Program-made: the position numbers and the translations under genes
Shown: positions 1 to 12,548 of the stretch, in pieces
Position numbering within the stretch: position 1 is the stretch's first letter
Layout: each line of letters begins with the position of its first letter
The notes under the pieces: generated by a model
The model's input: only the letters and a program-made list of their open reading frames with translations
The model's database searches: none
What the model was told of the DNA's origin: nothing
Source: an uncultured Chloroflexia bacterium
GTDB taxonomy: Bacteria > Chloroflexota > Limnocylindria > Limnocylindrales > CSP1-4
Length of the DNA: 64,000 nt
NCBI GenBank assembly: GCA_963821235.1
Contig: CAWGCS010000001.1
Location: forward strand, 46,804-110,803
Reading direction: 5' to 3'

Positions 1-88
1 CCACGGCCACGACCTGTCCGGCGTGGTCGAAGACCATGAAGCGGGTGCTCGTGGTCCCCTGGTCGAGGGCCCCCACGTACTTCGTCAT
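1..88 (-). CDS. glpK: glycerol kinase, 5' end only (gene continues beyond window start)
   Basis: The reverse complement of 1..88 translates to [29 protein letters not shown], the conserved GlpK N-terminus (sugar kinase DQGTTS phosphate-1 motif). The ATG at 88..86 is preceded by GGGAGA 5 nt upstream. Confidence 0.75.
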
Positions 89-127
89 GTGCGTCTCCCG
101 ATAAACGGTTGACCCCGATATGCCGGG

Positions 128-760
128 CTAGAGCCCGGCCCAGACCTCTGCGGCAGCCCGCAGCAGGAGATGGGTGGATGTCGCCCCGGGATCCTGGTGC
201 CCGGCCGACCGCTCGCCGAGGTAGCTCGCCCGGCCCTTGCGGGCCACGAGCGGCACCGTGGCGAGCATGCCCTCCTGCGCCCCGTCGGCCATCCGTGCCA
301 CGGCGCTGCCGATGGTGGCTCCATCGGTCATCGCGGCCCGAAGGGCATCGCGGGCGGGCAAGAGGGCGTCGACCATGGTCTTGTCGCCGGGCTCGGCCTT
401 CCCGATCCGGAGGACGCCGCCCAGGCCCGTCTCGAAGGCCATGGCGAACTCCTCCAGGGTGAGTGCCTCCTTCCCGATGACGGCACCGCCCATCTGCATG
501 AAGAACATCCCGTAGAGCGGGCCGCTGGCCCCCCCGACTGTCGAGACGAGGGTCGTGCCGACGGTCTTGAGGGCCGTCCCGACGTCCATGGCGGCAAGGC
601 TGTCGAGCTTGCCGACCACGGCCGTGAAGCCGCGGTCCATGTTGATCCCGTGATCGGCATCGCCGATCGCCGAATCGAGGTCGGTGAGGTAGGCCTTGTT
701 GGCCGCCACGTCGGCGGCGAATCGGCGCACCCAGGCGAGGACGTCGTCCTTCGAGATCAT
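128..760 (-). CDS. dhaL: dihydroxyacetone kinase ADP-binding subunit DhaL (Dak2 domain)
   Basis: 210 aa with Dak2 motifs GDADHGINMDRGF, GGASGPLYG, GDKTMVDAL and KGRASYLGERS-GH-DPGA. ATG at 760 with GGAG about 7 nt upstream. Lies 52 bp downstream of dhaK. Confidence 0.85.
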   Translation of the reverse strand: MISKDDVLAWVRRFAADVAANKAYLTDLDSAIGDADHGINMDRGFTAVVGKLDSLAAMDVGTALKTVGTTLVSTVGGASGPLYGMFFMQMGGAVIGKEALTLEEFAMAFETGLGGVLRIGKAEPGDKTMVDALLPARDALRAAMTDGATIGSAVARMADGAQEGMLATVPLVARKGRASYLGERSAGHQDPGATSTHLLLRAAAEVWAGL

Positions 761-812
761 TCGCGGCTCCGTTCCCGCTCCAGGGATGCTGACGTGAGGT
801 TGACGGACCGGC

Positions 813-1811
813 TCAGAGGCCCCAGCGGAGGCCCGGCGTCAGGACCGGAGCGTCCCAGTACTTCGTCAGCTCGTCGTCGAGGCGAAGCAGCGTGATCGAG
901 CAACCCGCCATCTCGAGCGAGGTGATGTAGTTGCCGACGAGGTTGCGGGTGATCGTGATCCCGCGCGCGTCGAGGATCTTCTTCAGCTCCGCGAAGATGA
1001 CGTAGAGCTCGATGAGCGGCGTGCCGCCCATCCCGTTCACGAAGGCGAGGACGCGGTCTCCGGAGGCGAACGGGAGGTCGTCGAGGATGGGCGTGGCGAG
1101 CATCTTGGTGATCTCGGCCGCGGAGGCGATCTTCATCCGCGTCCGGCCCGGCTCGCCGTGGATCCCGATGCCGATCTCCATCTCGTCGTCGCCGAGCTCG
1201 AACGTCGGCTTGCCGGCGGCCGGGACCGTGCAGCTCGTGAGGGCCATGCCCATCGAGCGGACGTTGTCCTGGACCTTCTGGCAGAGCGCCGTGACCGTCG
1301 CGAGGTTGGCGCCCGCCTCTGCGGCGGCACCGACGATCTTCTCGGCGAGGACAGTCCCGCCGACGCCGCGGCGACCCGCGGTGTAGAGCGAGTCCTTGAC
1401 GGCGACGTCGTCCGCGATGACGACGCTGGTGACCTCGATCCCCTCGGCCCGGGCCATCTCGGCCGCGAGCTCGAAGTTCATGATGTCGCCCGTGTAGTTC
1501 TTCACGATGTGGAGGACGCCGGCGCCGCCGTCGACCGCCTTGGTCGCGGCGAGCATCTGATCCGGGACCGGCGAGGTGAAGACCGCGCCAGGGCAGGCCG
1601 CATCGAGCATGCCACGCCCGACGAAGCCGCCGTGCATCGGCTCGTGCCCGCTGCCGCCGCCGGAGATGACGCCGACCTTGCCGGCCTTGGGGGCGTCCGC
1701 GCGCACGACCACGTTGGGCGCGATGACGCGGACGAGATCCGCATGCGCCGCGGCCACGCCGGCGAGGGCGTCGTCGACGACGGTGTCGGGGGCGTTGATG
1801 AGCTTCTTCAT
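813..1811 (-). CDS. dhaK: dihydroxyacetone kinase subunit DhaK
   Basis: 332 aa with Dak1 motifs [18 protein letters not shown] and IVKNYTGD. Strong SD AGGAGGAA ahead of the ATG at 1811. Confidence 0.9.
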
Positions 1812-1864
1812 CCGTTCCTCCTGCTACGTGATGCCGGGTGCTCGGGAACGTGCCATGGACGGGT

Positions 1865-1901
1865 GCGCGCCGGCGGCGAGGCCGTGAGGCCGCCGGCGCG
1901 C
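1865..1901 (-). terminator. GC-rich stem-loop between glpF and dhaK (13-bp perfect stem GCGCGCCGGCGGC / GCCGCCGGCGCGC, 11-nt loop)
   Basis: Read directly in the sequence. Located in the 109-bp glpF-dhaK intercistronic gap. No T-tract. Possible attenuator, processing site or intrinsic terminator. Confidence 0.4.
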
Positions 1902-1920
1902 GGGAGTTGCGGGCGCGAGG

Positions 1921-2679
1921 CTACGAGATGACCTTGGCGACGAAGTTGGTGATCCCGTAGTTGAAGGCGATCCAGCCGAGGGCGCCGCCGATGAGCGGAC
2001 CGACGACGGGGATCCAGGAATAGCCCCAATCCGAGCCGCCCTTGCCCGGGATGGGCAGGATGGCGTGCATGATCCGCGGCCCCAGGTCGCGGGCGGGGTT
2101 GATCGCGTACCCGGTCGTCGGGCCGAGGGCGAGGCCGATCACCAGGACGAGGAGGGCCCACGCGAGCGCGCCACCGATGGCCGGCGATGCGCCACCGGCG
2201 AGGCTGAACCCGATGAAGACCAGGGCGAACGTGCCGATGATCTCCGAGATGAGGTTCCAGGTCGTGTTGCGGATGGCCGGCGCGGTCGAGAAGACCGCCA
2301 GCTTGAGTCCCGGGTCCTCGGTCTCTGCCCAATGCGGGTAGTAGTGGAGGAAGACCAGGAACGCGCCGATCATGGCGCCCACCATCTGGCCGGCCCAGTA
2401 GACGATCAGCGAGTCGACGCCGAACGAGCCGTTGTTGACGGTGCTGTCCAGGAAGACCGCGAGCGTCACCGCCGGGTTGATGTGGGCCCCGGTGAACTGA
2501 CCGGCAACGGCGATGCCCGAGAACACCGCGAAGGCCCATGCCATGGTGATGACGATCCAGCCGCTCGCGTTCGCCTTCGTCTTGGCGAGCAGGACGCCAG
2601 CGACGACGCCATCGCCGAGGAGGATCAGGATCATCGTCCCGAGGACCTCCCCAAAGAACTTCTCACCCATGAATTCCAT
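1921..2679 (-). CDS. glpF: glycerol uptake facilitator (MIP/aquaglyceroporin)
   Basis: Two NPA boxes (HINPAVT, INPARD) and six predicted TM segments. The start is taken at MEFMGEKFF (2679), because the first 40 codons of the listed ORF 1921..2799 are non-membrane and Arg-rich. Confidence 0.85.
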   Translation of the reverse strand: MEFMGEKFFGEVLGTMILILLGDGVVAGVLLAKTKANASGWIVITMAWAFAVFSGIAVAGQFTGAHINPAVTLAVFLDSTVNNGSFGVDSLIVYWAGQMVGAMIGAFLVFLHYYPHWAETEDPGLKLAVFSTAPAIRNTTWNLISEIIGTFALVFIGFSLAGGASPAIGGALAWALLVLVIGLALGPTTGYAINPARDLGPRIMHAILPIPGKGGSDWGYSWIPVVGPLIGGALGWIAFNYGITNFVAKVIS

Positions 2680-2994
2680 GCTCTCTCCCTTTGGGTGTGG
2701 AAGCGCGCCATACGCGCGGAGGGCGACACGTCGTCGCCGATCGACTGAGGATCCGGCGAGCGAGCACCCGGTATGGGCTCGCCGGGCGGGGCACAGCACG
2801 ATCTGCCGGAGTGCGTCCCTCCCGTTCGTGTCGCGGCACGGCCCCGGGCCGCGCGACCGTCTGGGCGCGGTCGGCGCACAGTGCCCGCCGGCACCGTTGC
2901 AGGAAGGTTACGACCGGGCACGCCCCGGAATCGTCAAGACATTGTCCAGAATCGTGAGACGGCAATCGGGAGGGCGCCCCGGCGCGTTGCGGCC

Positions 2995-3654
2995 TCAGCC
3001 CGCGACGGTGGCGTCGGCCAGGGCGCGGAGGAGGATGGCGGCCGACGCCGCCCCGGGATCGAGGTGGCCGATCGATCGCTCCCCCAGGTAGCTGGCCCGG
3101 CCCTTGGTCGCCAGAAGGGGCACCGTCCCCTCCGCGCCGGCCTCGGCGGCCGCCGCCGCATGCCAGACGGCCGTGGCCAGGCTGGCCCCCTCCCCGACCG
3201 TCGCCGCGCACGCGTCGCGGGCCGGGACGAGGGCGTCGAGCATCGTCTTCTCGCCGGGCGCGGCCCGGCCCAGGGCCCCGATCGCGTCGACGGCCGCCGA
3301 GAGCGCGGCCGAGGCGCGCGCCTCGCGGGTGGCCGCCGGGCCGGACGCCTCCGCCGCGTCCAGCGCCGCCAGCGAGGCGCCGGCACGCTGGAACCCCCGG
3401 CCGTAGAGGGCGCCGCTCGCCCCGCCGACGGTCCCCATCAGGACGCGACCGGCGGCCTCCATGACCGCGGCGGACGGGCCGTCCGGGAGCTCGCCCGCGT
3501 CGATGCGCCGGGCCAGCTCGCGGAAGCCGCGGTCGAGGTTGATCCCGTGGTCGCCGTCGCCGATGGCGGCGTCGAGGTCGGTGAGCCGCTCGCGCGCCTC
3601 GGCGACGCGTACCGCCGCCAGCCGCAGCCAGCGGACGAGGAGGTCGTCCGTCAC
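2995..3654 (-). CDS. dhaL: second Dak2/DhaL-family paralog
   Basis: The C-terminal 219 aa of listed ORF 2995..4890 carry GDGDHGINLDRGF, GGASGALYG, GEKTMLDAL and KGRASYLGERS-GH-DPGA. GTG start at 3654 overlaps the dhaM stop (GTGA). The upstream 410 aa of the listed ORF are Arg/Gly-rich artefact. Confidence 0.8.
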   Translation of the reverse strand: MTDDLLVRWLRLAAVRVAEARERLTDLDAAIGDGDHGINLDRGFRELARRIDAGELPDGPSAAVMEAAGRVLMGTVGGASGALYGRGFQRAGASLAALDAAEASGPAATREARASAALSAAVDAIGALGRAAPGEKTMLDALVPARDACAATVGEGASLATAVWHAAAAAEAGAEGTVPLLATKGRASYLGERSIGHLDPGAASAAILLRALADATVAG

Positions 3655-4079
3655 GAGCCGGCCCCGGCCGGCCAGTCGGGGGGGAGCTTCTCCGTGTCGC
3701 GCTCCGCGTCGGCGACGGCGAGGACGCGCTCGAGGGACGACCCGCCCGCAGCCTCCACCGCGGCCCGCACCGCTCCCTCGACGAGGGGCCCGCGACTCAC
3801 CCGGATGCGGGCCCGGTCGGCCGGCCGCAGCTCCTCGAGGGCGATCTCGAGGGCGAGGGCCGCGCTCCCGAGGTCGAAGAGGACGACCACACCCTCGCCC
3901 CCGGAGGCCGCCAGCCCTGCCCGCAGGGCGCCGAGGATCGTCGGGCTGCTCGTCCCCAGGTTGCCGACCGCGGTCCCCCCGGCGGTTGCCACCGGCACGG
4001 TCGGAGAGCTCTGGGCGACCATCGCCCGGAGGGCCCGGAGCAGCTCCGGGCTGTGGCCCACCAGCACCAGCGCGATCAT
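3651..4079 (-). CDS. dhaM: DhaM-like PTS EIIA(Man)-family phosphotransfer subunit of dihydroxyacetone kinase
   Basis: The C-terminal 143 aa of ORF 3651..4439 (MIALVLVGHSPELLRALRAMV...VVLFDLGSA) match a single-domain EIIA-Man DhaM as found in Gram-positives. Its stop overlaps the dhaL2 start. Confidence 0.7.
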   Translation of the reverse strand: MIALVLVGHSPELLRALRAMVAQSSPTVPVATAGGTAVGNLGTSSPTILGALRAGLAASGGEGVVVLFDLGSAALALEIALEELRPADRARIRVSRGPLVEGAVRAAVEAAGGSSLERVLAVADAERDTEKLPPDWPAGAGS

Positions 4080-4158
4080 CGCGACCAGGCTCCCGTCCGA
4101 CGGCAGTCGGGCGACGGCGTCGCACGGCGTCGCCGGCCGCCGTAGACTCAGGCGGCCC

Positions 4159-4872
4159 ATGAAGAGGATAGGGTCCCCGGCACTCCCTCCGCAGGCCGGT
4201 CCCGCCCCGGCCGCGCACGATGCGCTGGCCGCGCACGACGTGGTCCGTTTCGTCGAGCGCGCCGCTGCCACGCTGGTGCGCCACGAGGCGCTCCTCGACC
4301 GCCTCGATGCCGCCCTCGGCGACGGAGACCACGGCTCGAACATGGCCATCGGGTTCGCGGTCGCCGTGCCCGCCGCTCGGGCCGCGCTCATCGAGCATCC
4401 CAACGACGTCGGCGAGCTGCTCCGGATGCTCGGGCACACCCTGGTGGCGAGCGTGGGGGGGGCGAGCGGCCCGCTCTACGGGACTGCCTTCATCGAAGCG
4501 GGCTTCGCCCTGGCGGGGACACCGACGGCCGGGCCACGCGAGCTTGCGGCCGCGCTCGAGGCGGGCCGGGCCGGGCTCGCCCGCCGGGGTCGCTGCGCCG
4601 TCGGCGACAAGACGATCCTCGATGCGCTCGACCCGGCGATCCGGGCGCTCCGGACCTCGGCCGACGCCGGGGCGCCATTCGAGACGTGCATCGCAGCTGC
4701 CGTCGGCGGGGCCCGGGACGGCATGCGCGCCACCATCCCCCTCGTGGCGCGCCGCGGCCTGGCCCTGCGCCTGGGCGAGCGCTCGCGCGGCCATCGCGAC
4801 CCAGGAGCCACGTCCTGCTTCCTGCTCCTCGGGTCGATGGCCCGGGTCGTCCGCCACGGCGTGCCCGCATGA
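4159..4872 (+). CDS. third Dak2/DhaL-family protein, translationally coupled to the histidine kinase
   Basis: The C-terminal 238 aa of ORF 2773..4872 carry LDAALGDGDHGSNMAIGF, GGASGPLYG, GDKTILDALDP and LGERSRGHRDPGATS. The ATG at 4159 is the first in-frame start not overlapping dhaM, so the N-terminus is uncertain. The stop TGA overlaps the ATG of the kinase (ATGA). Confidence 0.7.
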   Translation: MKRIGSPALPPQAGPAPAAHDALAAHDVVRFVERAAATLVRHEALLDRLDAALGDGDHGSNMAIGFAVAVPAARAALIEHPNDVGELLRMLGHTLVASVGGASGPLYGTAFIEAGFALAGTPTAGPRELAAALEAGRAGLARRGRCAVGDKTILDALDPAIRALRTSADAGAPFETCIAAAVGGARDGMRATIPLVARRGLALRLGERSRGHRDPGATSCFLLLGSMARVVRHGVPA

Positions 4873-6587
4873 CGGGCGCGTCGCGCCCAACCGTCCCGGC
4901 CGGGACGGTGGCCGCCACCCAGGGCATGGCCGCCCGGGACCTGGCCGCCCTGGAGGCCCGCATCGGCGAGCTGGAGGAGGAGCGGCGACGGATCTTCGAG
5001 GACGCCCAGCGGGAAGCCGACGCGGTCTTCGCCCAGTACCAGCTCAGCCAGCTCCTGGCCGCGGGCGGGAGCGTCCAGGAGATCGCGGCCGCAGTGCTGG
5101 CGGAGGTGGCGCGGGCCGTCGGCGCCGCGACCGCCGCCCTCTGGCTCGCCCGGCCGGCGGTCGCGACCCTCGAGCTGGTGGCGTCCGTCCCTGACGGCCC
5201 CGAAGCAGCCGCCCTCGGCGTCCCGGACGCCCCACCACGGGCGTTCGCCGATCTCGAGGACGCCCGGGCCTGGGCAGCAGCCCGATCCTGGAGCGGCAAC
5301 GTCCTCCCTGAAGGCCGCTCGATGGTCGGGGGCGGCGAGGTCGCCCGCGACGCGGGCGCCGTCGGCTACCTCGCCGTGCGGGCCGCCCCGGGGGACCAGC
5401 TGGAGCCGGCTCACGCCCGCTACCTGGCCGGCGTCCGCCTGGAGCTGGCGGTCACCCTCCGCGCGGCCCAGCTCCGGGCATCCCTGGCCCGCGAGCAGGC
5501 GACGCTGGCAGCGATCCTCGAGGGGGCGACCGACGCCATCGTGGCCGTCGACGTGAACCGCCGGATCGTGCGCCTCAACGCCGCCGCCGCCTCGCTCGTC
5601 GGCATGTCCGCCGTCGTCGGGTCGGGGATGCACTGCTCCGAGCTGCTCGGCTGCGGCCGCCGGCCCCCGTACGGGTCGCGCCCCCTCGAGCGGCTCTGCG
5701 GCGCCCGCTGCCCGTTCCTCGACGTGCTGGAGTCAGGCCGCCCGATCGTCGCCCGCGAGATCGCCGTCCACCACCGCGACGGGACGGAGATCCCGGTGGC
5801 CGCCAGCGTCTCGCGGATGCCCACCCCCGACGGCGGCGCGGTGGCGGTCCTCCGCGACCTGCGCGCGTCGCGCTCCCTCGACGACGCGAAGACGAGCTTC
5901 GTGGCCGCCGTATCGCACGAGCTCCGGACGCCCCTCGCCCTCATCGACGGCTACTCGCAGAGCCTGCTCCACCTGGACCTCGACGCGGCCACCGCGCGGC
6001 GGCACGTCGAGCGGATCGCGGGCGCGGCGCAGCGCCTGGCGGCCCTGATCGACGACATCATCGACGTCAGCCAGGTCGAGAGCGACGCCCTCGTCCTGCG
6101 CCGGACCCCGGTGGCCGTCGACGGCCTCCTCCGCGCCTACCTCGCGGAGCGCGCCGAGGCGCCCGATGCGCGCGCCGTGTCGCTGACGCTCCCGCGGTCG
6201 CTGCCCCTCGTGGACGTCGACGCCACGCGGATCCGCCAGGTGATCGGCAACCTGGTCCAGAACGCCGAGAAGCATGCCGGGCGGTCGGCGACGATCCAGA
6301 TCCGCGCCCGCCGGCTGGACGAGGCGACGGTCGTCGTCACGGTCGCCGACGACGGGCGCGGCATCGCCCCCGAGGACCGCGACCACGCCTTCGAGCGCTT
6401 CTACCGCGGCCAGCGGGTCCGCGAGTCGCGCGTCCCCGGCAGCGGCCTCGGGCTCTACCTCTGCCGGCGCATCGTCGAGGCCCATGGCGGGTGGATCCGC
6501 CTCGACGCCACGACCCGGGGGACCTCGGTCTCTCTCGGCCTCCCGGTCGCCACGATGCGCTCCTCCGTCCGCGAGGTGCAGGCGTGA
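4869..6587 (+). CDS. cytoplasmic sensor histidine kinase (coiled-coil, GAF, PAS, HisKA, HATPase_c)
   Basis: Domains present: HisKA H-box SHELRTPL, N-box QVIGNLVQNAEKHAG, G1 box DDGRGI and G2 box GSGLGL. No TM segments. The PAS region holds a four-Cys cluster (HCSELLGCG...LCGARCP). Start taken at MTGASRP, overlapping the Dak2 gene stop. Confidence 0.85.
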   Translation: MTGASRPTVPAGTVAATQGMAARDLAALEARIGELEEERRRIFEDAQREADAVFAQYQLSQLLAAGGSVQEIAAAVLAEVARAVGAATAALWLARPAVATLELVASVPDGPEAAALGVPDAPPRAFADLEDARAWAAARSWSGNVLPEGRSMVGGGEVARDAGAVGYLAVRAAPGDQLEPAHARYLAGVRLELAVTLRAAQLRASLAREQATLAAILEGATDAIVAVDVNRRIVRLNAAAASLVGMSAVVGSGMHCSELLGCGRRPPYGSRPLERLCGARCPFLDVLESGRPIVAREIAVHHRDGTEIPVAASVSRMPTPDGGAVAVLRDLRASRSLDDAKTSFVAAVSHELRTPLALIDGYSQSLLHLDLDAATARRHVERIAGAAQRLAALIDDIIDVSQVESDALVLRRTPVAVDGLLRAYLAERAEAPDARAVSLTLPRSLPLVDVDATRIRQVIGNLVQNAEKHAGRSATIQIRARRLDEATVVVTVADDGRGIAPEDRDHAFERFYRGQRVRESRVPGSGLGLYLCRRIVEAHGGWIRLDATTRGTSVSLGLPVATMRSSVREVQA

Positions 6588-7327
6588 CCGCCACCTCGCC
6601 GCGGATGCCCGGCCCGATCGCGGGGAACGGCGAGCGGATCCTCGTCGTCGAGGACGAGCCCGCCTTCGCCGAGCTGATCGCCCTCTGGCTGGAGCGGCAC
6701 GGCTGGCAGGCGGAGATCGCGCCCGACGGCGCCCACGCCCTGCAGACGGTCGAGGCCCGGCCTCCCGACCTGATCGTGCTGGACCTCAGCCTGCCGCGGG
6801 TGGACGGCTGGCACGTCATCGAGCGGGTCCGGCAGAGCAGCCTCGTGCCGATCATCGTCGTCACCGCCCGGGGATCCGAGGCCGACAAGGTCCGTGGGCT
6901 GGCGATCGGCGCCGACGACTACGTCACCAAGCCGCTCAGCTTTCCCGAGCTGATCGCCCGTGTCGCCGCCGCCCTCCGGCGGGCCCGCGCGGCCGGGGGC
7001 GCGCCCAGCGAGGCAGCCACCATCGAGCACCCCGGGATCCGGATCGACGGGCGGAGCCACCGGGTCGAGGTCGACGAGCGGCCGCTCCACCTGACGCCCA
7101 CCGAGTACCGCCTCCTGCGCCACCTCGCGGAGCGCCCCGGCGTCCTGGTGCCCCACGCCGACCTCCTCGTGGCCGTCTGGGGGCCCGGCTACCGCGACGA
7201 CCACCACCTCCTGCGGGTGGCGATCCGCAACCTCCGGGCGAAGCTCGGGGCGGCGACGGGCGGACGGCGCTACATCGAGACGGAGTACGGCCTGGGCTAC
7301 CGCTTCTCCCCCGGCGACGGCAGCTGA
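6584..7327 (+). CDS. OmpR-family response regulator (REC + winged-helix)
   Basis: ILVVEDEP...LDLSLP with the phospho-acceptor Asp, ADDYVTKP, and a C-terminal wHTH (LTPTEYRLLRHLA...GYRF). The GTG at 6584 overlaps the kinase stop (GTGA); the alternative ATG at 6608 is equally possible. Confidence 0.85.
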   Translation: MTATSPRMPGPIAGNGERILVVEDEPAFAELIALWLERHGWQAEIAPDGAHALQTVEARPPDLIVLDLSLPRVDGWHVIERVRQSSLVPIIVVTARGSEADKVRGLAIGADDYVTKPLSFPELIARVAAALRRARAAGGAPSEAATIEHPGIRIDGRSHRVEVDERPLHLTPTEYRLLRHLAERPGVLVPHADLLVAVWGPGYRDDHHLLRVAIRNLRAKLGAATGGRRYIETEYGLGYRFSPGDGS

Positions 7328-10300
7328 GCCTCGCGGTCGCCGGCCCGCGCCTCCCGGGCAGCGGCGACCCGGGCGACGAGCGCCTGGGTGAGCGCCCAGG
7401 CCCGGGCCGGATCGCGCGGGATGCGGATCCGGACCTGGCTGGCCGCGAAGGTGACGTCGCCGGGCCGGACACCCGGCAGCGGGGCGCCCGCCACGAGCCG
7501 CATCGCCTCGCCGCGCGAGAGGCCGCTCCCGAAGCGGACCACGAGCAGCCCCTCCTCGCGGGCCAGCGAAGCGATCCCGGCCGCCTCCGCTGCGAGGCGC
7601 AGCTCGGCCACGTCGACGAGGCGCAGAACGGCCGGCGGCATCGGCCCGAAGCGGTCGACCGCCTCCTGGCGGAAGGCGGCCACGTCGCCCGCCGTGCGGG
7701 CGCGGGCCAGGCGGCGGTAGAGCTCCAGCTTCTGGGCCTCGTCCGGGACGTAGGAGTCGGGCAGGTGGGCGTCGACCGGGAGGTCCACCGTTGCCCCGGC
7801 CGAGGCGCGGACGGGCTGGCGGCCCTCCCAGCTCGCCTTGCGGTCCTCGACCGCCTCCGCGAGGAGGCGGGTATACAGGTCGAAGCCGACGTCGGCCATG
7901 TGGCCCGACTGCTCGCCGCCCAGGATGTTGCCGGCGCCGCGGATCTCCAGGTCGGCGAGGGCGATCTGGAAGCCGGCCCCCAGCTCCGAGGCGTTGAAGA
8001 TCGCCTGGAGCCGCTTGCGCGCCTCGTCCGAGAGGCGGTCGCGGCGCCGGTACAGGAGGTACGCGTAGGCCCGCCGGTTGCTCCGCCCGACGCGCCCCCG
8101 CAGCTGGTAGAGCTGGGCCAGCCCGAGCGCGTCGGCGCGGTCGATGATGATCGTGTTGGCGTTCGGGATGTCCAGCCCGGACTCGATGATCGTCGTGCAG
8201 ACCAGGACGTCCGCCTCGCCCGAGGCGAACGCCCGCATGACCCGCTCCAGGGCGCCCTCGCTCATCTGGCCGTGCCCGACGACGACCCGGGCCGCGGGGA
8301 GGAGGCGCCGCAGCTGGTCGGCCTGGGCCTCGATCGTCTCGACCCGGTTGTGGACGAAGAAGACCTGGCCGCCGCGGTCGAGCTCGCGCAGGATGGCATC
8401 CTTGACGAGCCCGGCCGAGGCCTCCGCGACGCGGGTCTGGATGGGCAGCCGATCCTCCGGCGGGGTCTCGATGACCGACATGTCGCGGACCCCGACGAGG
8501 GCCAGGTTGAGCGTCCGCGGGATCGGCGTCGCCGAGAGGGTCAGGACGTCGACCTCGGTCCGCAGCTGCTTGAGGCGCTCCTTGGCCGCGACGCCGAAGC
8601 GCTGCTCCTCGTCGACCACCAGGAGGCCGAGGTCGCGGAAGCGGACGTCCCTGGAGAGCAGGCGGTGGGTCCCCACGACGAGGTCGACGGAGCCCGCGGC
8701 GAGCCCGGCGAGGGTGGCGGCCTGGTCCTTTGCCGGGACCGCCCGGGAGAGGAGGCGGACGGTCGCCGGGAAGGCCGCGTAGCGCTGGTCGAAGGTTCGG
8801 ACGTGCTGGTCGGCGAGCACCGTCGTGGGGACGAGGACTGCCACCTGCCGCCCGTCCTCGATCGCCTTGAAGGCGGCCCGCAGCGCCACCTCCGTCTTGC
8901 CGTACCCCACGTCGCCGACGACGATGCGGTCCATCGGCCGGGCCGTCTCCATGTCGACCTTGACCTCGTCGATCGCCCGCACCTGGTCGGCCGTCTCTTC
9001 GTAGGGGAACGACGCCTCCAGCTCCCGCTGCCACGGCGTGTCGGGGCCGAAGGCGTGGCCCTCGGCCGCGGCCCGCGCGGCGTAGAGGCGGAGGAGGTCG
9101 TCGGCAAGGTCGGCGACGGCCCGCCGGACGCGGGCGGTGGTGCGGGCCCACTCGGCGCTCCCGAGGCGTGAGAGGGCCGGGCGCTCGGCGCCGGCGTAGC
9201 GTGTCACCCGGATGACCTGCTCGACCGGCACGAAGATCCGGTCGCCGGCGGCGAACGAGAGCTCGAGGTAGTCGCGCTCCTCGCCGGCGCCCCCGCGGCG
9301 GAGCATCCGCTCGTACCTGGCGATGCCGTGGTCGACGTGGACGACGAGGTCGCCCGGGGTGAGCCGCTCGAGGACGTCGCGCGGGACGACCCGCCGGAGG
9401 GCCTTGGGACGCCGGACGCGGACGGTCCCGAAGAGCTCCCGGTCGGTCACCACGACGAGACCGTCCGGCCCGCCGGAGAAGCCGGCGTTCAGGCTCCGCC
9501 CGACCAGCGCGAGGGCGCCCGGCGGAGGCACGTCGGGGCGCATCGTCGCCCCGGCCGGGATGCCGGCCTCGCCGAGCAGCTCGGCGATGCGGGCGGCCTG
9601 GTCCGAGGCGAGGATGATCCGGGGTGCCGGCGCGGCCGTCGACCCCGGGGCGCGGCGTGTGGCGACGATACCCGGCGGGACGGCCTGGCGGGCGTCCTCC
9701 GCCTCTCCCTCGGCGAGCGGCACCGACGCCGGCCGGCCGGCCCGCCAGCGCTCGATGGCGCGGACGAGCCCCGCGCTGCGGCCCGGGGGGAGGACCGGCT
9801 CGCGCCAGCCGAAGGCGTCGTCGAGGGCCTCGCCCCCGCCGATCGAGGCTGCCGGGCCGGGCTCCCAGGTCAGCTCCAGGGTCCGACCGGCGAGCAGGCG
9901 ACCCTTCCAGGCGCGCGGCCCAAGGTAGGCCTCGGGCCAGGCGGCGGGGAGCTCGTCGCTGGCCACGAGGTCGCGGCGGCGCTCGGCCGCCTGCTCCCAC
10001 AGGAACTCCGCTGCCGCCGCCACCTCGCCCGGCTCGTCGACCACGAGCAGGGTCTCTCGGTCGAGGTGGTCCAGGCCGCTGGCGGGGCAGACGATGGCCG
10101 CCCAGACCTCGGCCGCGTCGCCGACGTCGAGGGCGCGGGTGGCGGCCGAGCGGCCGGGCGACCCGCCGGGGGACGGGACGGACGGCGGTGCGCCGGGGCG
10201 CCTGCCGGCGGGCGCGGCCGCCTCGGACCCGCCCTCCATCCGTTCCAGGTCAGCCGCGAGGCGCTCCGGGAGCCGGCCCGCGAGCGGCCCGAGCCGCCCG

Positions 10301-11112
10301 CGGAGCTCGTCCGTGCCGCCGGCCGGGACGAGGAACTCGTTGGCCGGCAGGAGCTCGACCTCCTCCGCCGGCCGAACCGTGCGCTGGTCGGTGGGGTCGA
10401 AGACGCGGAGCTCGTCGACTTCGTCGCCGAAGAGCTCGATGCGGACGGGAAGGTCGGCCCCCGCCGGGAAGACGTCGACGAGCCCGCCCCGGCGGGCCAT
10501 CTCGCCGCGCCCGGCGACCTCGAGGACGGGCTCGTAGCCGAGGCGCAGCAGCTCGGCCAGCAGGTCGTCCTGGCGGACCCGGTCGCCCCGCGTCAGGACG
10601 CGCGGCCGGTCCGGGATGTCGGCCGGCAGGATCGTCGGCTGGAGGAGAGCCTGGACGGAGGCCACCAGGACCCGGGCGCGGCCGCTCCGCCAGCGGGCGA
10701 GGGCGGCGACGCGGGCGGCGGACTCGTCGCGGATCAGCTCGCTCCGCTCGTAGGCCAGGGCGGACCGTGGCTCCAGGACGGCGACCGCGTCCGGATCGCC
10801 CAGCCAGGCGACGACCTCATCGGCCACGCGGTCGCCGATCTCGGCGTCGCGCGCGATCCAGCAGACGCGGTCGCCGTCGGCCCGGGCCAGCGCGGCGACG
10901 AGGAACGACTTCGCCCCGTGGGGCACGCCCGTGACGGCCGCGTGGCTGCCCCGCGGCCCAGGGCCGGCGGCCAGCACGACGTCGAGCGCCCGGAAGGGGT
11001 CCGTCTCGCGGAGGAGGGGCGGCAGGGCCGAGAGGTCGGGGATCCGCCGGGCGGCAGGCTCGGGCCCCGGACCCGGCGTCTGGGTCGCCCGGCGACGAGC
11101 GTGGCCGGTCAT
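7297..11112 (-). CDS. mfd: transcription-repair coupling factor
   Basis: 1271 aa with UvrB-homology N-terminus, RNAP-interacting domain, DEAD/DEAH helicase motifs (GDVGYGKTEVA, DEEQRFG), helicase C and TRCF domains. Confidence 0.9.
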   Translation of the reverse strand: MTGHARRRATQTPGPGPEPAARRIPDLSALPPLLRETDPFRALDVVLAAGPGPRGSHAAVTGVPHGAKSFLVAALARADGDRVCWIARDAEIGDRVADEVVAWLGDPDAVAVLEPRSALAYERSELIRDESAARVAALARWRSGRARVLVASVQALLQPTILPADIPDRPRVLTRGDRVRQDDLLAELLRLGYEPVLEVAGRGEMARRGGLVDVFPAGADLPVRIELFGDEVDELRVFDPTDQRTVRPAEEVELLPANEFLVPAGGTDELRGRLGPLAGRLPERLAADLERMEGGSEAAAPAGRRPGAPPSVPSPGGSPGRSAATRALDVGDAAEVWAAIVCPASGLDHLDRETLLVVDEPGEVAAAAEFLWEQAAERRRDLVASDELPAAWPEAYLGPRAWKGRLLAGRTLELTWEPGPAASIGGGEALDDAFGWREPVLPPGRSAGLVRAIERWRAGRPASVPLAEGEAEDARQAVPPGIVATRRAPGSTAAPAPRIILASDQAARIAELLGEAGIPAGATMRPDVPPPGALALVGRSLNAGFSGGPDGLVVVTDRELFGTVRVRRPKALRRVVPRDVLERLTPGDLVVHVDHGIARYERMLRRGGAGEERDYLELSFAAGDRIFVPVEQVIRVTRYAGAERPALSRLGSAEWARTTARVRRAVADLADDLLRLYAARAAAEGHAFGPDTPWQRELEASFPYEETADQVRAIDEVKVDMETARPMDRIVVGDVGYGKTEVALRAAFKAIEDGRQVAVLVPTTVLADQHVRTFDQRYAAFPATVRLLSRAVPAKDQAATLAGLAAGSVDLVVGTHRLLSRDVRFRDLGLLVVDEEQRFGVAAKERLKQLRTEVDVLTLSATPIPRTLNLALVGVRDMSVIETPPEDRLPIQTRVAEASAGLVKDAILRELDRGGQVFFVHNRVETIEAQADQLRRLLPAARVVVGHGQMSEGALERVMRAFASGEADVLVCTTIIESGLDIPNANTIIIDRADALGLAQLYQLRGRVGRSNRRAYAYLLYRRRDRLSDEARKRLQAIFNASELGAGFQIALADLEIRGAGNILGGEQSGHMADVGFDLYTRLLAEAVEDRKASWEGRQPVRASAGATVDLPVDAHLPDSYVPDEAQKLELYRRLARARTAGDVAAFRQEAVDRFGPMPPAVLRLVDVAELRLAAEAAGIASLAREEGLLVVRFGSGLSRGEAMRLVAGAPLPGVRPGDVTFAASQVRIRIPRDPARAWALTQALVARVAAAREARAGDREAQLPSPGEKR

Positions 11113-11795
11113 CGATCCTCGTCGGCCGGGCGGATCCGCCGCCAGCCCGTGCGCGTCCGGCGCACCCCGTCGGGGCCGGGCGGGCCGTCGACCTCACCCG
11201 GCGGCGCCGTGCGCGTCTCATCGGCCGGCCGCAGCTGGAAGGCGTTGAAGCGGTTGGCCGCCTTCGAAACGCCCTCCCGGGCCCAGGCCTCCACGGCGTC
11301 GGCGGCGGCGTCGAGCAGCTCGTCGAGGCGCTGGCGCTCCTCCGCCCGGAAGACGGAGAGGACGTGGTCCACCGCGTCGCGACCGGGCTCTCCGATCCCG
11401 ATCCGCAGCCGCGGGAAGGCTTCCGTGTGCAGCTCCTCGATGATGGAGCGCAGGCCGTTGTGACCGCCGTGGCTGCCGCCCTCGCGGAAGCGCATCTTCC
11501 CGAACGGGAGGCTGAAGTCGTCGGTCACCACGAGGACTTCATGGAGCGGGGCCCGCTCCCGGGCGATCAGCTTGCGAACGGCGATGCCGGAGTCGTTCAT
11601 GTAGGTGAGCGGCTTGGCCAGCACGAGGTCGAGCCCCCGGAACCGGCCCTGGACCACCGCGCTCGCGTCGCGGGTGCGGCCGCGACCCGCCCAGCCGGCC
11701 CGATCGGCCAGACGGTCGAGCGCCATCCAGCCGACGTTGTGGCGGGTCCGCGCGTACTGCTCGCCCGGGTTCCCGAGCCCGACGACGACCTTCAC
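11109..11795 (-). CDS. pth: peptidyl-tRNA hydrolase with a ~40-aa C-terminal extension
   Basis: VKVVVGLGNPG...HNGL motifs. GTG start with GGAGGT 5 nt upstream. The stop overlaps the mfd start by 4 nt. Confidence 0.85.
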   Translation of the reverse strand: MKVVVGLGNPGEQYARTRHNVGWMALDRLADRAGWAGRGRTRDASAVVQGRFRGLDLVLAKPLTYMNDSGIAVRKLIARERAPLHEVLVVTDDFSLPFGKMRFREGGSHGGHNGLRSIIEELHTEAFPRLRIGIGEPGRDAVDHVLSVFRAEERQRLDELLDAAADAVEAWAREGVSKAANRFNAFQLRPADETRTAPPGEVDGPPGPDGVRRTRTGWRRIRPADEDR

Positions 11796-11969
11796 GTCAC
11801 CTCCGTGGGGCGGACCTCGCTGGGGCACGCCGAACGGCCCGCATCCGCGATGGACCGGGCCCTGCCGGGGATGGTACCCGCCGGCGCCGGCCACCGCGCG
11901 TCGGGCAGTCCCTGCCGTCCCGGCATCCCGCGGGCGGGCATCCCGCCGGCCGGACCCTCCGACCCGACC

Positions 11970-12548
11970 TCAGGACGACGCCACGCCCGCGAGGAGCGCC
12001 CGCTCGAGGGAGCGCATCGCCGCCTCTTCCGCCGGCTCCGCGTGGTCCCAGCCGCAGACGTGGAGCGCGCCATGGACGACGAGGAGGCGCAGCTCGTCGG
12101 CCGGCGACCAGCGCACGTCGCCCGTCTGGCCGCCGCGCCCCTCCCGGGCCTGGGCGACCGCCCGCTCGACGGAGACGACGATGTCCCCGAGGTGGAGACG
12201 CGTGCCAGGCGGCAGCAGGAAGGCCCGGCCGGCACCCGGCGCGACGTCGCCCGCCGATCGGAGAGCGCCCGCGTGCGGCGGGAAGGCCCCCGGCGGCAGG
12301 AGCGGGAAGGAGAGGACGTCGGTCGGGCCCTCCGTGCCCAGGTGGGCCGCGTTCAGGCTGGCCAGCTCGGCGTCGTCGGCCAGGACCAGGCCCACCGAGG
12401 CCGGCTCCGGCGCCCCGCCGGCGAGCAGCCCGGCGCGCACGGCCCGGGCCAGGGCGGCCTCCGGGATGAGCCGCGGCACGCCCGGCCGCACCTCGAGATC
12501 GACCCGGAACGGCGGCAGGTACAGGGCGCGGAGCCCCGGCCCGATCAC
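11970..12548 (-). CDS. ybeY: rRNA maturation endoribonuclease YbeY
   Basis: HGALHVCGWDH zinc-binding motif. About 190 aa. Confidence 0.8.
   Translation of the reverse strand: MIGPGLRALYLPPFRVDLEVRPGVPRLIPEAALARAVRAGLLAGGAPEPASVGLVLADDAELASLNAAHLGTEGPTDVLSFPLLPPGAFPPHAGALRSAGDVAPGAGRAFLLPPGTRLHLGDIVVSVERAVAQAREGRGGQTGDVRWSPADELRLLVVHGALHVCGWDHAEPAEEAAMRSLERALLAGVASS

Follow-up and report, generated by a model that had tools for sequence, protein, structure and literature searches.

The stretch of DNA analysed here, referred to as the window, comprises 64,000 nucleotides of contig CAWGCS010000001.1 (assembly GCA_963821235.1) from an uncultured Chloroflexia bacterium. It carries a three-gene unit, the triad, in which dhaL3, a paralogue of the gene for the nucleotide subunit of dihydroxyacetone (Dha) kinase, is followed by genes for a soluble sensor histidine kinase and an OmpR/PhoB-family response regulator. 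The triad is divergent from dhaM–dhaL2 and glpF–dhaK–dhaL1 (table 1). Two other dhaL genes, dhaK and dhaM thus lie less than 4 kb away, as the initial annotation of this DNA had noted. That annotation also described a tight unit joined by ATGA and GTGA overlaps, and the map of open reading frames and the junction sequences agree. The TGA of dhaL3 and the ATG of the kinase gene (4869) share ATGA; the TGA of the kinase gene and the GTG of the regulator gene (6584) share GTGA, with ATG 6606 as the other possible regulator start. These overlaps are conserved, and together with the absence of intergenic space they argue for co-expression of the three genes. The lineage first suggested, Actinomycetota, had to be revised. 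Source names of the close homologues are Chloroflexi bacterium, uncultured Chloroflexia and Candidatus (Ca.) Limnocylindrales, an order of the class Ca. Limnocylindria of the Chloroflexota, and the organism is of Limnocylindria type.

Table 1. Features of the triad and of the adjoining dha and glp genes, in window coordinates.
Feature	Position	Strand	Basis or remark
dhaL1	128-760	-	
Presumed target operon glpF–dhaK–dhaL1	128-2679	-	runs on as glpK–glpD–...–dhaM2 past the window start
dhaK	813-1811	-	
glpF	1921-2679	-	
Candidate operator TCTGGAC-AATG-TCTTGAC (complement GGAATCGTCAAGAC box), direct repeat upstream of glpF	2933-2950	-	conserved in group A (the window's group)
dhaL2, canonical DhaL (KGRASY intact), translationally coupled to dhaM	2995-3654	-	
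dhaM, single-domain EIIA-man-type phosphoryl donor	3651-4079	-	Pfam EIIA-man 8e-14, TIGR02364; near-constant neighbour of the triad
dhaM–dhaL3 divergent spacer, 79 bp	4080-4158	.	-10-like TAGACT (4143-4148), 10 nt before the ATG
dhaL3 (Dak2/DhaL paralogue, kinase-linked clade, 237 aa)	4159-4872	+	Pfam Dak2, TIGR02365, neighbour-joining clade
DhaL3 Cys146 (E. coli Ala123 position)	4594-4596	+	frequency 1.00 in 50 clade sequences; Ala in others
DhaL3 signature RGLALR, residues 199-204, in place of KGRASY	4753-4770	+	column comparison, 168 Dak2 proteins; repeated in the lower-GC set
DhaL3 Cys220 (E. coli Val197 position; DPGAxSC)	4816-4818	+	invariance confined to the kinase-linked clade
Soluble sensor histidine kinase, 572 aa	4869-6587	+	PAS, HisKA, HATPase_c
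N-terminal helix A46-L62, AQREADAVFAQYQLSQLL, most conserved stretch of the sensor	5004-5054	+	at least 95% conserved, 49 species
GAF-like domain, kinase residues 69-171	5073-5381	+	
PAS domain, kinase residues 223-330	5535-5858	+	
C256-x5-C262-x14-C277-x3-C281, in the PAS domain between helices E-alpha and F-alpha	5634-5711	+	alignment and model
OmpR/PhoB-family response regulator, 247 aa	6584-7327	+	Response_reg 3e-28, Trans_reg_C 1.6e-20

Conservation of the triad was surveyed by a scan with DhaL3, taking one genome per GTDB species; the resulting 80 loci were annotated by tblastn with the window proteins. In every Chloroflexota locus that holds the gene closest to DhaL3 (53–82% identity), the sensor, kinase core and regulator lie directly downstream, and dhaM is divergent upstream in all but a few. 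Matches outside the Chloroflexota (Propionibacteriaceae, Holophagaceae, Solirubrobacterales and others) are plain dhaK–dhaL–dhaM sets with no kinase. A neighbour-joining tree of 168 Dak2 proteins contains one kinase-linked clade of 53, made up of 50 members with a kinase downstream, two at contig ends and the window. The triad is found in each of the 50 clade members that have downstream sequence, an arrangement far beyond chance expectation. The junction is conserved as well. A four-nucleotide NTGA overlap joins dhaL3 to the kinase gene in 42 of 51 species and an overlap of 8–11 nt does so in six more, so translational coupling is retained in 48 of the 51.

The unit persists where its surroundings change. 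In the basal group (L045, L048–L050, L053, L055, L059 and L061) the triad is intact despite other neighbours: the operon reads dhaM–HPr–glpF–dhaK–dhaL, there are only two DhaLs, and mfd is not next door. The link is also seen when the kinase is the starting point: each of three kinase homologues selected blind to DhaL has a Dak2 gene immediately upstream. With the sensor region as query, an exhaustive profile search returned only 47 cluster representatives at E<=1e-30. Two distant sensor relatives show the same Dak2–kinase–regulator arrangement; one (P0271, 62% GC) is flanked by DinB genes, and the other (P0267, 67% GC) has an EIIA-man gene divergent and dhaK–dhaL convergent. A protein search seeded with the Dak2 linked to P0271 uncovered a lower-GC branch, of which three contexts (L094, L095 and L096) were examined. 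The first (46% GC) reads Dak2–kinase–regulator–EIIAman–EIICB–EIIA(Glc)–EI. The second, a Chloroflexota metagenome-assembled genome (MAG) of 60% GC, reads Dak2–kinase–regulator–dhaM–HPr–dhaK–dhaL–EI on a single strand, and the third has Dak2 followed by a frameshifted kinase. The triad thus recurs in Chloroflexota of 46–76% GC with differing flanks; it is therefore an old unit, mobile relative to its flanks, that has a DhaM-type EIIA beside it in nearly every case. A gene-neighbourhood survey had been proposed as a check by the initial annotation, and in about 50 species-level genomes, including those in which flanking synteny is lost, the triad is kept as a unit. One apparent fusion was set aside. 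The metagenome protein P0251 (627 aa) had been considered as a Dak2–HisKA 'Rosetta stone'; both domain matches are truncated, and a frameshift at the ATGA junction in a long-read assembly is its most likely origin.

DhaL3 is a clear member of its family. It matches Pfam Dak2 (PF02734) at E=4e-45 and 154 bits (cut-off 27) and the DhaL equivalog TIGR02365 (dha_L_ycgS) at 168.9 bits (cut-off 138.3). The E. coli DhaL structures 3PNL_B and 4LRZ match it at E=1e-34, and identity to E. coli DhaL is 37%. Residues were compared by column, in E. coli numbering, among 50 DhaL3 proteins, 30 DhaL2 proteins (encoded after dhaM), 43 DhaL proteins of the same genomes whose genes follow dhaK, and 27 from other phyla; the clade-wise comparison, like the tree, is based on 168 Dak2 proteins. 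Asp30, Asp35 and Asp37 of DhaL are Mg2+ ligands (PMC9136124, PMC10848957). These residues, His38 and the motifs GGASG, DKT, GERS and DPGA are common to all four groups. In the 50 kinase-linked DhaL3 proteins, the three Asp residues, His38, GGASG, DKT and DPGA are at least 98% conserved; the Dak2 nucleotide-binding residues, whose absence the initial annotation had thought damaging to its proposal, are present.

Other positions set the clade apart. Catalytic DhaLs invariably carry the motif A-R/T-K-G-R-A-S-Y-L-G-E-R-S plus Arg44. Only DhaL3 has the changes K176R, R178L, S180L and Y181R, which turn KGRASY into RGLALR; they are 94–100% conserved in the clade, and KGRASY is at least 83–100% conserved in the other three groups. 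Also confined to DhaL3 are R90E and the loss of Arg44, a position that is variable in the clade. Two cysteines are a further mark (table 1). A second, lower-GC set of Dak2 proteins is bimodal: Cys-bearing sequences read G-[LI]-A-[LM]-[RQ] and Cys-free ones GRASY. Three contexts of the Cys-bearing proteins were checked, and all three are kinase-linked. In the low-GC branch of DhaL3, GERS is lost too, and the sequence reads RRGLAMQYGTAS, YGTASAGH. Gene order follows the same division: dhaL3 is always followed by a histidine kinase gene, and canonical dhaL copies come after dhaK or dhaM. DhaL3 accordingly has the profile score and nucleotide motifs of a DhaL and lacks both the KGRASY/Arg44 motif and adjacency to dhaK. 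Retention of the nucleotide motifs together with the clade-specific changes fits a protein that binds nucleotide without catalysis. From the replacement of residues that are invariant elsewhere, we infer that DhaL3 is non-catalytic, and on this pattern it should not be filed plainly as 'DhaL'. The earlier suggestion of a third paralogue freed for regulation gains support from the separate clade and its invariant changes; the clade is old and dedicated, not a recent third copy, since basal relatives carry just two DhaLs.

The kinase has the layout of a cytoplasmic sensor. As first described, it has no transmembrane segment (maximum 19-residue Kyte–Doolittle mean 1.57). Pfam identifies PAS (residues 213–330), HisKA (4e-15) and HATPase_c (4e-28), and the boxes of a HisKA-type kinase are complete: H-box HELRTP (His350), N NLVQNA, G1 DDGRG and G2 GSGLGL. 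An AlphaFold model of residues 1–340, made with 42 orthologues, has a predicted local distance difference test (pLDDT) score of 85.9 and consists of a helix (11–65), an alpha/beta domain (69–171), a linker helix (182–221) and PAS (223–330). This is the GAF-like, coiled-coil linker and PAS-like architecture of the DhaR-type sensing domain. Residues 46–62 have the consensus AQREADxxFAQYQLSQLL, which appears as QADDLFALYQI(S/T)QF in relatives of 46–62% GC; this helix is a candidate docking or dimerization surface. The PAS domain contains four conserved cysteines, as do the cytoplasmic PAS domains of NreB/AirS-type kinases. Cys256, Cys262 and Cys281 occur in 49 of 49 species, and Cys277 in 41 of 49, with a conserved His in its place in the basal group; the motif is found in the 46–62% GC relatives too. 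The downstream protein has the receiver and winged-helix Trans_reg_C domains of OmpR/PhoB regulators. It is without a named orthologue, as its best NCBIfam models, PhoB and MtrA, both fall below their cut-offs.

A shared DNA box may connect the regulator to neighbouring operons. Five divergent lineages, the window's group and four others, have a conserved GGAAtCGTCAAGAC-type box in the promoter regions of their dha/glp genes. Upstream of glpF in the window, the candidate operator ends 21–22 nt before a -10-like TAACCT. In the basal group a GTCAAGA-type box is present as GGACTCGTCAAGAAnnAAGCAAGA in the dhaM–dhaL3 spacer, and such boxes also lie upstream of glpF (L051), dhaK (L093) and dhaM (L095). 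The strict pattern TCTKGAC-N4-TCTTGAC matched groups A and E only; the looser GTCAAGA box is more widespread and variable in orientation. As the operator of the regulator, the GTCAAGA-type box is tentatively the strongest candidate.

Several known systems resemble parts of this arrangement. In E. coli the transcription factor DhaR is activated by DhaL-ADP and repressed by DhaK (PMC10084136, PMC6643234). As in that system, the proposed signal is a Dha-kinase subunit in a defined nucleotide state, the receiver is a cytoplasmic tandem of GAF-like and PAS-like domains on a long helix, and the regulator genes lie divergent from or beside the dha operon. The output differs: DhaR is a DNA binder of the AAA+ enhancer-binding type, whereas here a HisKA kinase and an OmpR regulator would form a His–Asp phosphorelay. 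In addition, a catalytic DhaL moonlights in the DhaR system, whereas the signalling DhaL here is a dedicated, diverged paralogue; the PAS domain here has a Cys4 site, and the sensor has no demonstrable sequence homology to the N-terminal region of DhaR, DhaR(N). In Lactococcus lactis the co-activator of DhaS, a regulator from the TetR family, is DhaQ, a non-catalytic DhaK paralogue (PMC7590123). There too a Dha-kinase subunit was duplicated and given over to sensing, and its gene lies beside that of the regulator it controls. The duplicated subunit of DhaS/DhaQ is, however, the Dha-binding K subunit and its partner a one-component TetR protein, whereas the triad employs the nucleotide-carrying L subunit and a histidine kinase.

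Small signal proteins that bind a histidine kinase and shift its kinase/phosphatase balance are represented by PII–NtrB and by EIIA(Ntr) with KdpD or PhoR. Here, as there, the state of the signal protein would reflect metabolism or phosphorylation of the phosphotransferase system (PTS). Unlike the PII trimer or EIIA, the signal protein would be a Dak2 eight-helix barrel carrying a nucleotide, and the genes are translationally coupled. NreB and AirS of staphylococci are soluble histidine kinases in which four Cys of a cytoplasmic PAS hold an iron–sulphur (Fe–S) cluster. The triad kinase differs from them in the spacing and position of its cysteines (C-x5-C-x14-C-x3-C between E-alpha and F-alpha) and in having a Dak2 partner, and its cluster is only a candidate. 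The Staphylococcus aureus Dak2 fatty-acid kinase FakA/VfrB affects SaeRS output indirectly, through fatty-acid pools, and the genes are unlinked. Both cases tie a Dak2-domain protein to two-component output, but here the genes form one translationally coupled unit. Dak2 and Fak biology is treated in PMC4623894 and PMC9136124. In the literature searched for DhaL or Dak2 with a histidine kinase or two-component system, no description of this arrangement was found, in line with the initial annotation, which had known of no DhaL paralogue hard-wired to a histidine kinase.

The reading that we prefer, and to which we give about an even chance, is that DhaL3 is a non-catalytic, nucleotide-binding DhaL paralogue that acts as co-sensor of the adjacent soluble histidine kinase. 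It draws on the strict linkage, the translational coupling, the motifs retained and lost, the GAF–linker–PAS layout, the DhaR and DhaQ precedents and the shared box. The idea of the initial annotation, a DhaL-sensing two-component system, is thus supported and withstands the refuting conditions that it set on residues and on conservation of the triad. The proposed mechanism is as follows. (i) Phosphoryl groups would pass from phosphoenolpyruvate (PEP) through EI and HPr to DhaM, which would phosphorylate ADP bound to DhaL3. (ii) DhaL3 would be discharged by DhaK with dihydroxyacetone, or by back-transfer to a dephosphorylated PTS. (iii) The ADP/ATP state of DhaL3 would thus mirror both Dha flux and the phosphorylation state of the PTS. 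(iv) One nucleotide form, DhaL3-ADP by analogy with E. coli DhaL-ADP on DhaR, would dock on the N-terminal helix/GAF–PAS region of the kinase and switch autokinase versus phosphatase activity. (v) The phosphorylated OmpR-type regulator would act on the neighbouring dha/glp (or PTS) operon through promoter boxes of the GTCAAGA type. (vi) The PAS Cys4 site would provide a second metal or redox input, or be structural. The sequences themselves establish the order and coupling of the genes, the clade, the motifs kept or lost, the folds of the domains and the recurrent neighbours, whereas we infer nucleotide binding, the transfer from DhaM to DhaL3, the direction of regulation and the operator. PTS genes do lie inside the module in some lineages, with HPr and EI in L095 and HPr in the basal group.

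A bolder version extends this co-sensor mechanism to a Chloroflexota-wide relay from the PTS to a two-component system. Dak2-ADP, phosphorylated by a DhaM-type EIIA, would be the physical input of the kinase and would convert PEP/PTS status and triose flux to His–Asp signalling. Six invariant Cys, two in DhaL3 and four in PAS, would further make the relay subject to redox or metal gating, perhaps where the two proteins meet. We regard this version as doubtful, though with some real chance of being correct. Soluble histidine kinases of unknown cue are common, and few protein co-sensors are known. With a Dak2 protein that carries a nucleotide and is coupled to the PTS, the triad offers a concrete and testable kinase input and points to an undescribed feed of sugar-phosphotransferase or dihydroxyacetone status into a two-component system. 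If the co-sensor reading is true, the logic of a 'trigger enzyme subunit', known from DhaR and DhaS/DhaQ, extends to two-component systems. An annotation rule would also follow for an entire clade of 'DhaL' genes, probably without enzymatic function: both Cys, G-L-A-[LM]-[RQ] for GRASY, and a kinase downstream. The triad would then be a route by which glycerol and dihydroxyacetone use is regulated in soil and freshwater Chloroflexota, which are abundant and mostly uncultured.

A number of points weigh against the co-sensor reading. The physical contact between DhaL3 and the kinase is presumed, and the need for KGRASY in catalysis, deduced from its invariance, is a weak point. The likeness of the sensor to DhaR(N) concerns architecture only, and homology is not demonstrated. 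In a Foldseek search of the PDB with the sensor model, the E. coli complexes of DhaR(N) with DhaK and with DhaL (4LRY_C, 4LRZ_H and 4LRX_C) rank first, third and seventh over about 300 aligned columns; their E-values tie with FixL tandem PAS, and template modelling (TM) scores are 0.25–0.29. Sequence methods are less favourable. The sensor profile against PDB sequences reaches DhaR(N) at E=0.058, in the PAS only; hhalign of the sensor with DhaR(N) gives a probability of 25% and phmmer E=0.42; and the 150 best matches of the exhaustive sensor profile search include no DhaR-like protein. Neither EI nor HPr was found in the 64-kb window, so the PTS of this genome is unconfirmed, and the distant locus L092 has no dhaK or dhaM within its 5.4 kb. 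The candidate operator flips orientation among lineages and holds TTGAC, and may thus belong to a promoter or to a different regulator. Finally, the Cys4 or Cys3His arrangement of the PAS domain is a candidate metal or Fe–S site and thus a second possible input, and DhaL need not be the sole cue.

This last point leads to the alternative that the kinase senses redox, oxygen, NO or metal through the PAS cysteines, with DhaL3 a modulator, a chaperone-like partner or simply co-regulated. Invariance of three of these cysteines across 49 species, with the motif recurring in the lower-GC relatives, speaks for it, as does their location between E-alpha and F-alpha, the usual place of PAS cofactors. 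Fe–S PAS kinases exist in NreB and AirS, and glycerol/Dha catabolism is redox-linked, with glpD and Fe–S subunit genes in the same operon. It leaves unexplained why a diverged DhaL clade is coupled to the kinase in every genome examined and why DhaM accompanies it. The cysteines may bind zinc in a structural role, and cysteine sensing is in any case compatible with a DhaL3 co-sensor. As a replacement for the co-sensor reading we think it rather unlikely. Somewhat less probable still is that DhaL3 reports general PTS phosphorylation through DhaM, independently of DhaK and dihydroxyacetone, the module controlling whichever carbohydrate operon is adjacent. Downstream of the triad in L094 come genes for EIIA-man, a sugar EIICB, EIIA(Glc) and EI, and dhaK is not in view; an EIIA-man gene stands beside the triad in all examined contexts except L092, and DhaL3 lacks some residues that are invariant in DhaK-partnering DhaLs. 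Most genomes, however, have dhaK, dhaL and glpF as neighbours, the PTS-sugar context is a single one on a contig that ends 8.7 kb in, and the ATP bound to DhaL3 would still require a sink.

DhaL3 might also be an ordinary catalytic DhaL isoform whose gene happens to head an autoregulated operon that includes the regulators, with no protein–protein signalling to the kinase. Its score above the TIGR02365 cut-off, its identity to E. coli DhaL, the nucleotide and Mg motifs and the adjacent dhaK and dhaM are what such an isoform would be expected to show. Yet KGRASY and Arg44 are replaced in every clade member, unlike in the 100 other DhaLs compared and in E. coli; GERS is also gone in the low-GC branch; canonical DhaLs already lie beside dhaK and dhaM; and strict, translational linkage to the kinase holds in genomes of 46–76% GC. 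We consider this improbable. Dak2 domains normally phosphorylate a ligand held by a partner domain, either DhaK or FakB/DegV, and in both Dha kinase and fatty-acid kinase the substrate-binding partner is separate (PMC9136124, PMC10848957). DhaL3 could by extension be a kinase subunit with a new partner: a small molecule held by GAF or PAS, domains that do bind small molecules, would be phosphorylated and the phosphorylated metabolite would be the signal. This is a pure conjecture of very low probability, for GAF and PAS are unrelated to the DhaK and DegV folds, and the residues lost in DhaL3 are invariant in active kinases.

The promoter of the triad has conserved elements of its own. TAGACT or TACACT stands 9–10 nt upstream of the dhaL3 start in all groups, and in the basal group TTGCC lies 17–18 nt further upstream, which suggests a near-leaderless dhaL3–kinase–regulator transcript. 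For the start itself, ATG 4159 is the codon called in MAGs and GTG 4240 a possible alternative, and the choice is uncertain. Length and sequence of the stretch from the called ATG to the Dak2 homology (4159–4240) vary greatly among lineages; it contains about four copies of a 30-bp unit in L035 and has about 100 extra codons in L038. The first codons include a conserved ATAGG, with the rare Ile codon ATA, which doubles as a second -10-like box, TAGGGT. The true start may lie downstream, for example at GTG 4240, with the ATAGG element acting at the DNA or RNA level. A perfect tandem pair of ACGGCGTCGC in the divergent spacer (4114–4133) was considered as the regulator's operator and dropped: at up to one mismatch the 10-mer has 60 matches in the window against 36 expected, and sister genomes do not conserve the second copy. 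A scan of 2600–7600 for consensus promoters and terminators gave no match and is uninformative at 76% GC.

At its other end, the regulator gene overlaps the convergent mfd (7297–11112, reverse strand) by 31 nt (7297–7327), and no intrinsic terminator was detected. L095 has a long, perfect hairpin, ATAAACAAATTAGAACC...GGTTCTAATTTGTTTAT, after its regulator gene (5820–5870), by which the triad and dhaM–HPr–dhaK–dhaL–EI look like separate transcription units.

The leader of glpF is unusual. It spans some 230–250 nt (2680–2905, reverse strand) between TAACCT (2910–2905) and the glpF start and is far more conserved than the adjoining coding sequence across 11 sister genomes. It is GC-rich, with many hairpins, and its CUUCC is predicted to pair with the GGGAG Shine–Dalgarno sequence. 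Covariation was seen in 2 of 72 pairs, among sequences too similar to show it, and an Rfam search of 2500–4300 at E<=1 returned no family. The leader is possibly an uncharacterized cis-regulatory RNA of the glycerol/Dha operon.

Operon content varies among relatives. In L012 a second single-domain DhaM (1190–1597, reverse strand, 135 aa) ends the operon glpF–dhaK–dhaL1–glpK–glpD–FeS–cyt b, so that such genomes carry two DhaM and three DhaL per one DhaK; the matching position falls beyond the left end of the window. In the basal group the HPr gene (GLHARPAA, 85–105 aa) lies inside the dha operon, between dhaM and glpF. The genes glpF–dhaK–dhaL1 have 68–70% GC, against 75–80% elsewhere (window 1–3000 versus 3000–12000), and the closest relatives of DhaL1 outside the Chloroflexota, at about 61% identity, are from Holophagaceae and Solirubrobacterales. 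This suggests that glpF–dhaK–dhaL1 was gained or replaced laterally beside an older core of dhaM–dhaL2 and dhaL3–kinase–regulator.

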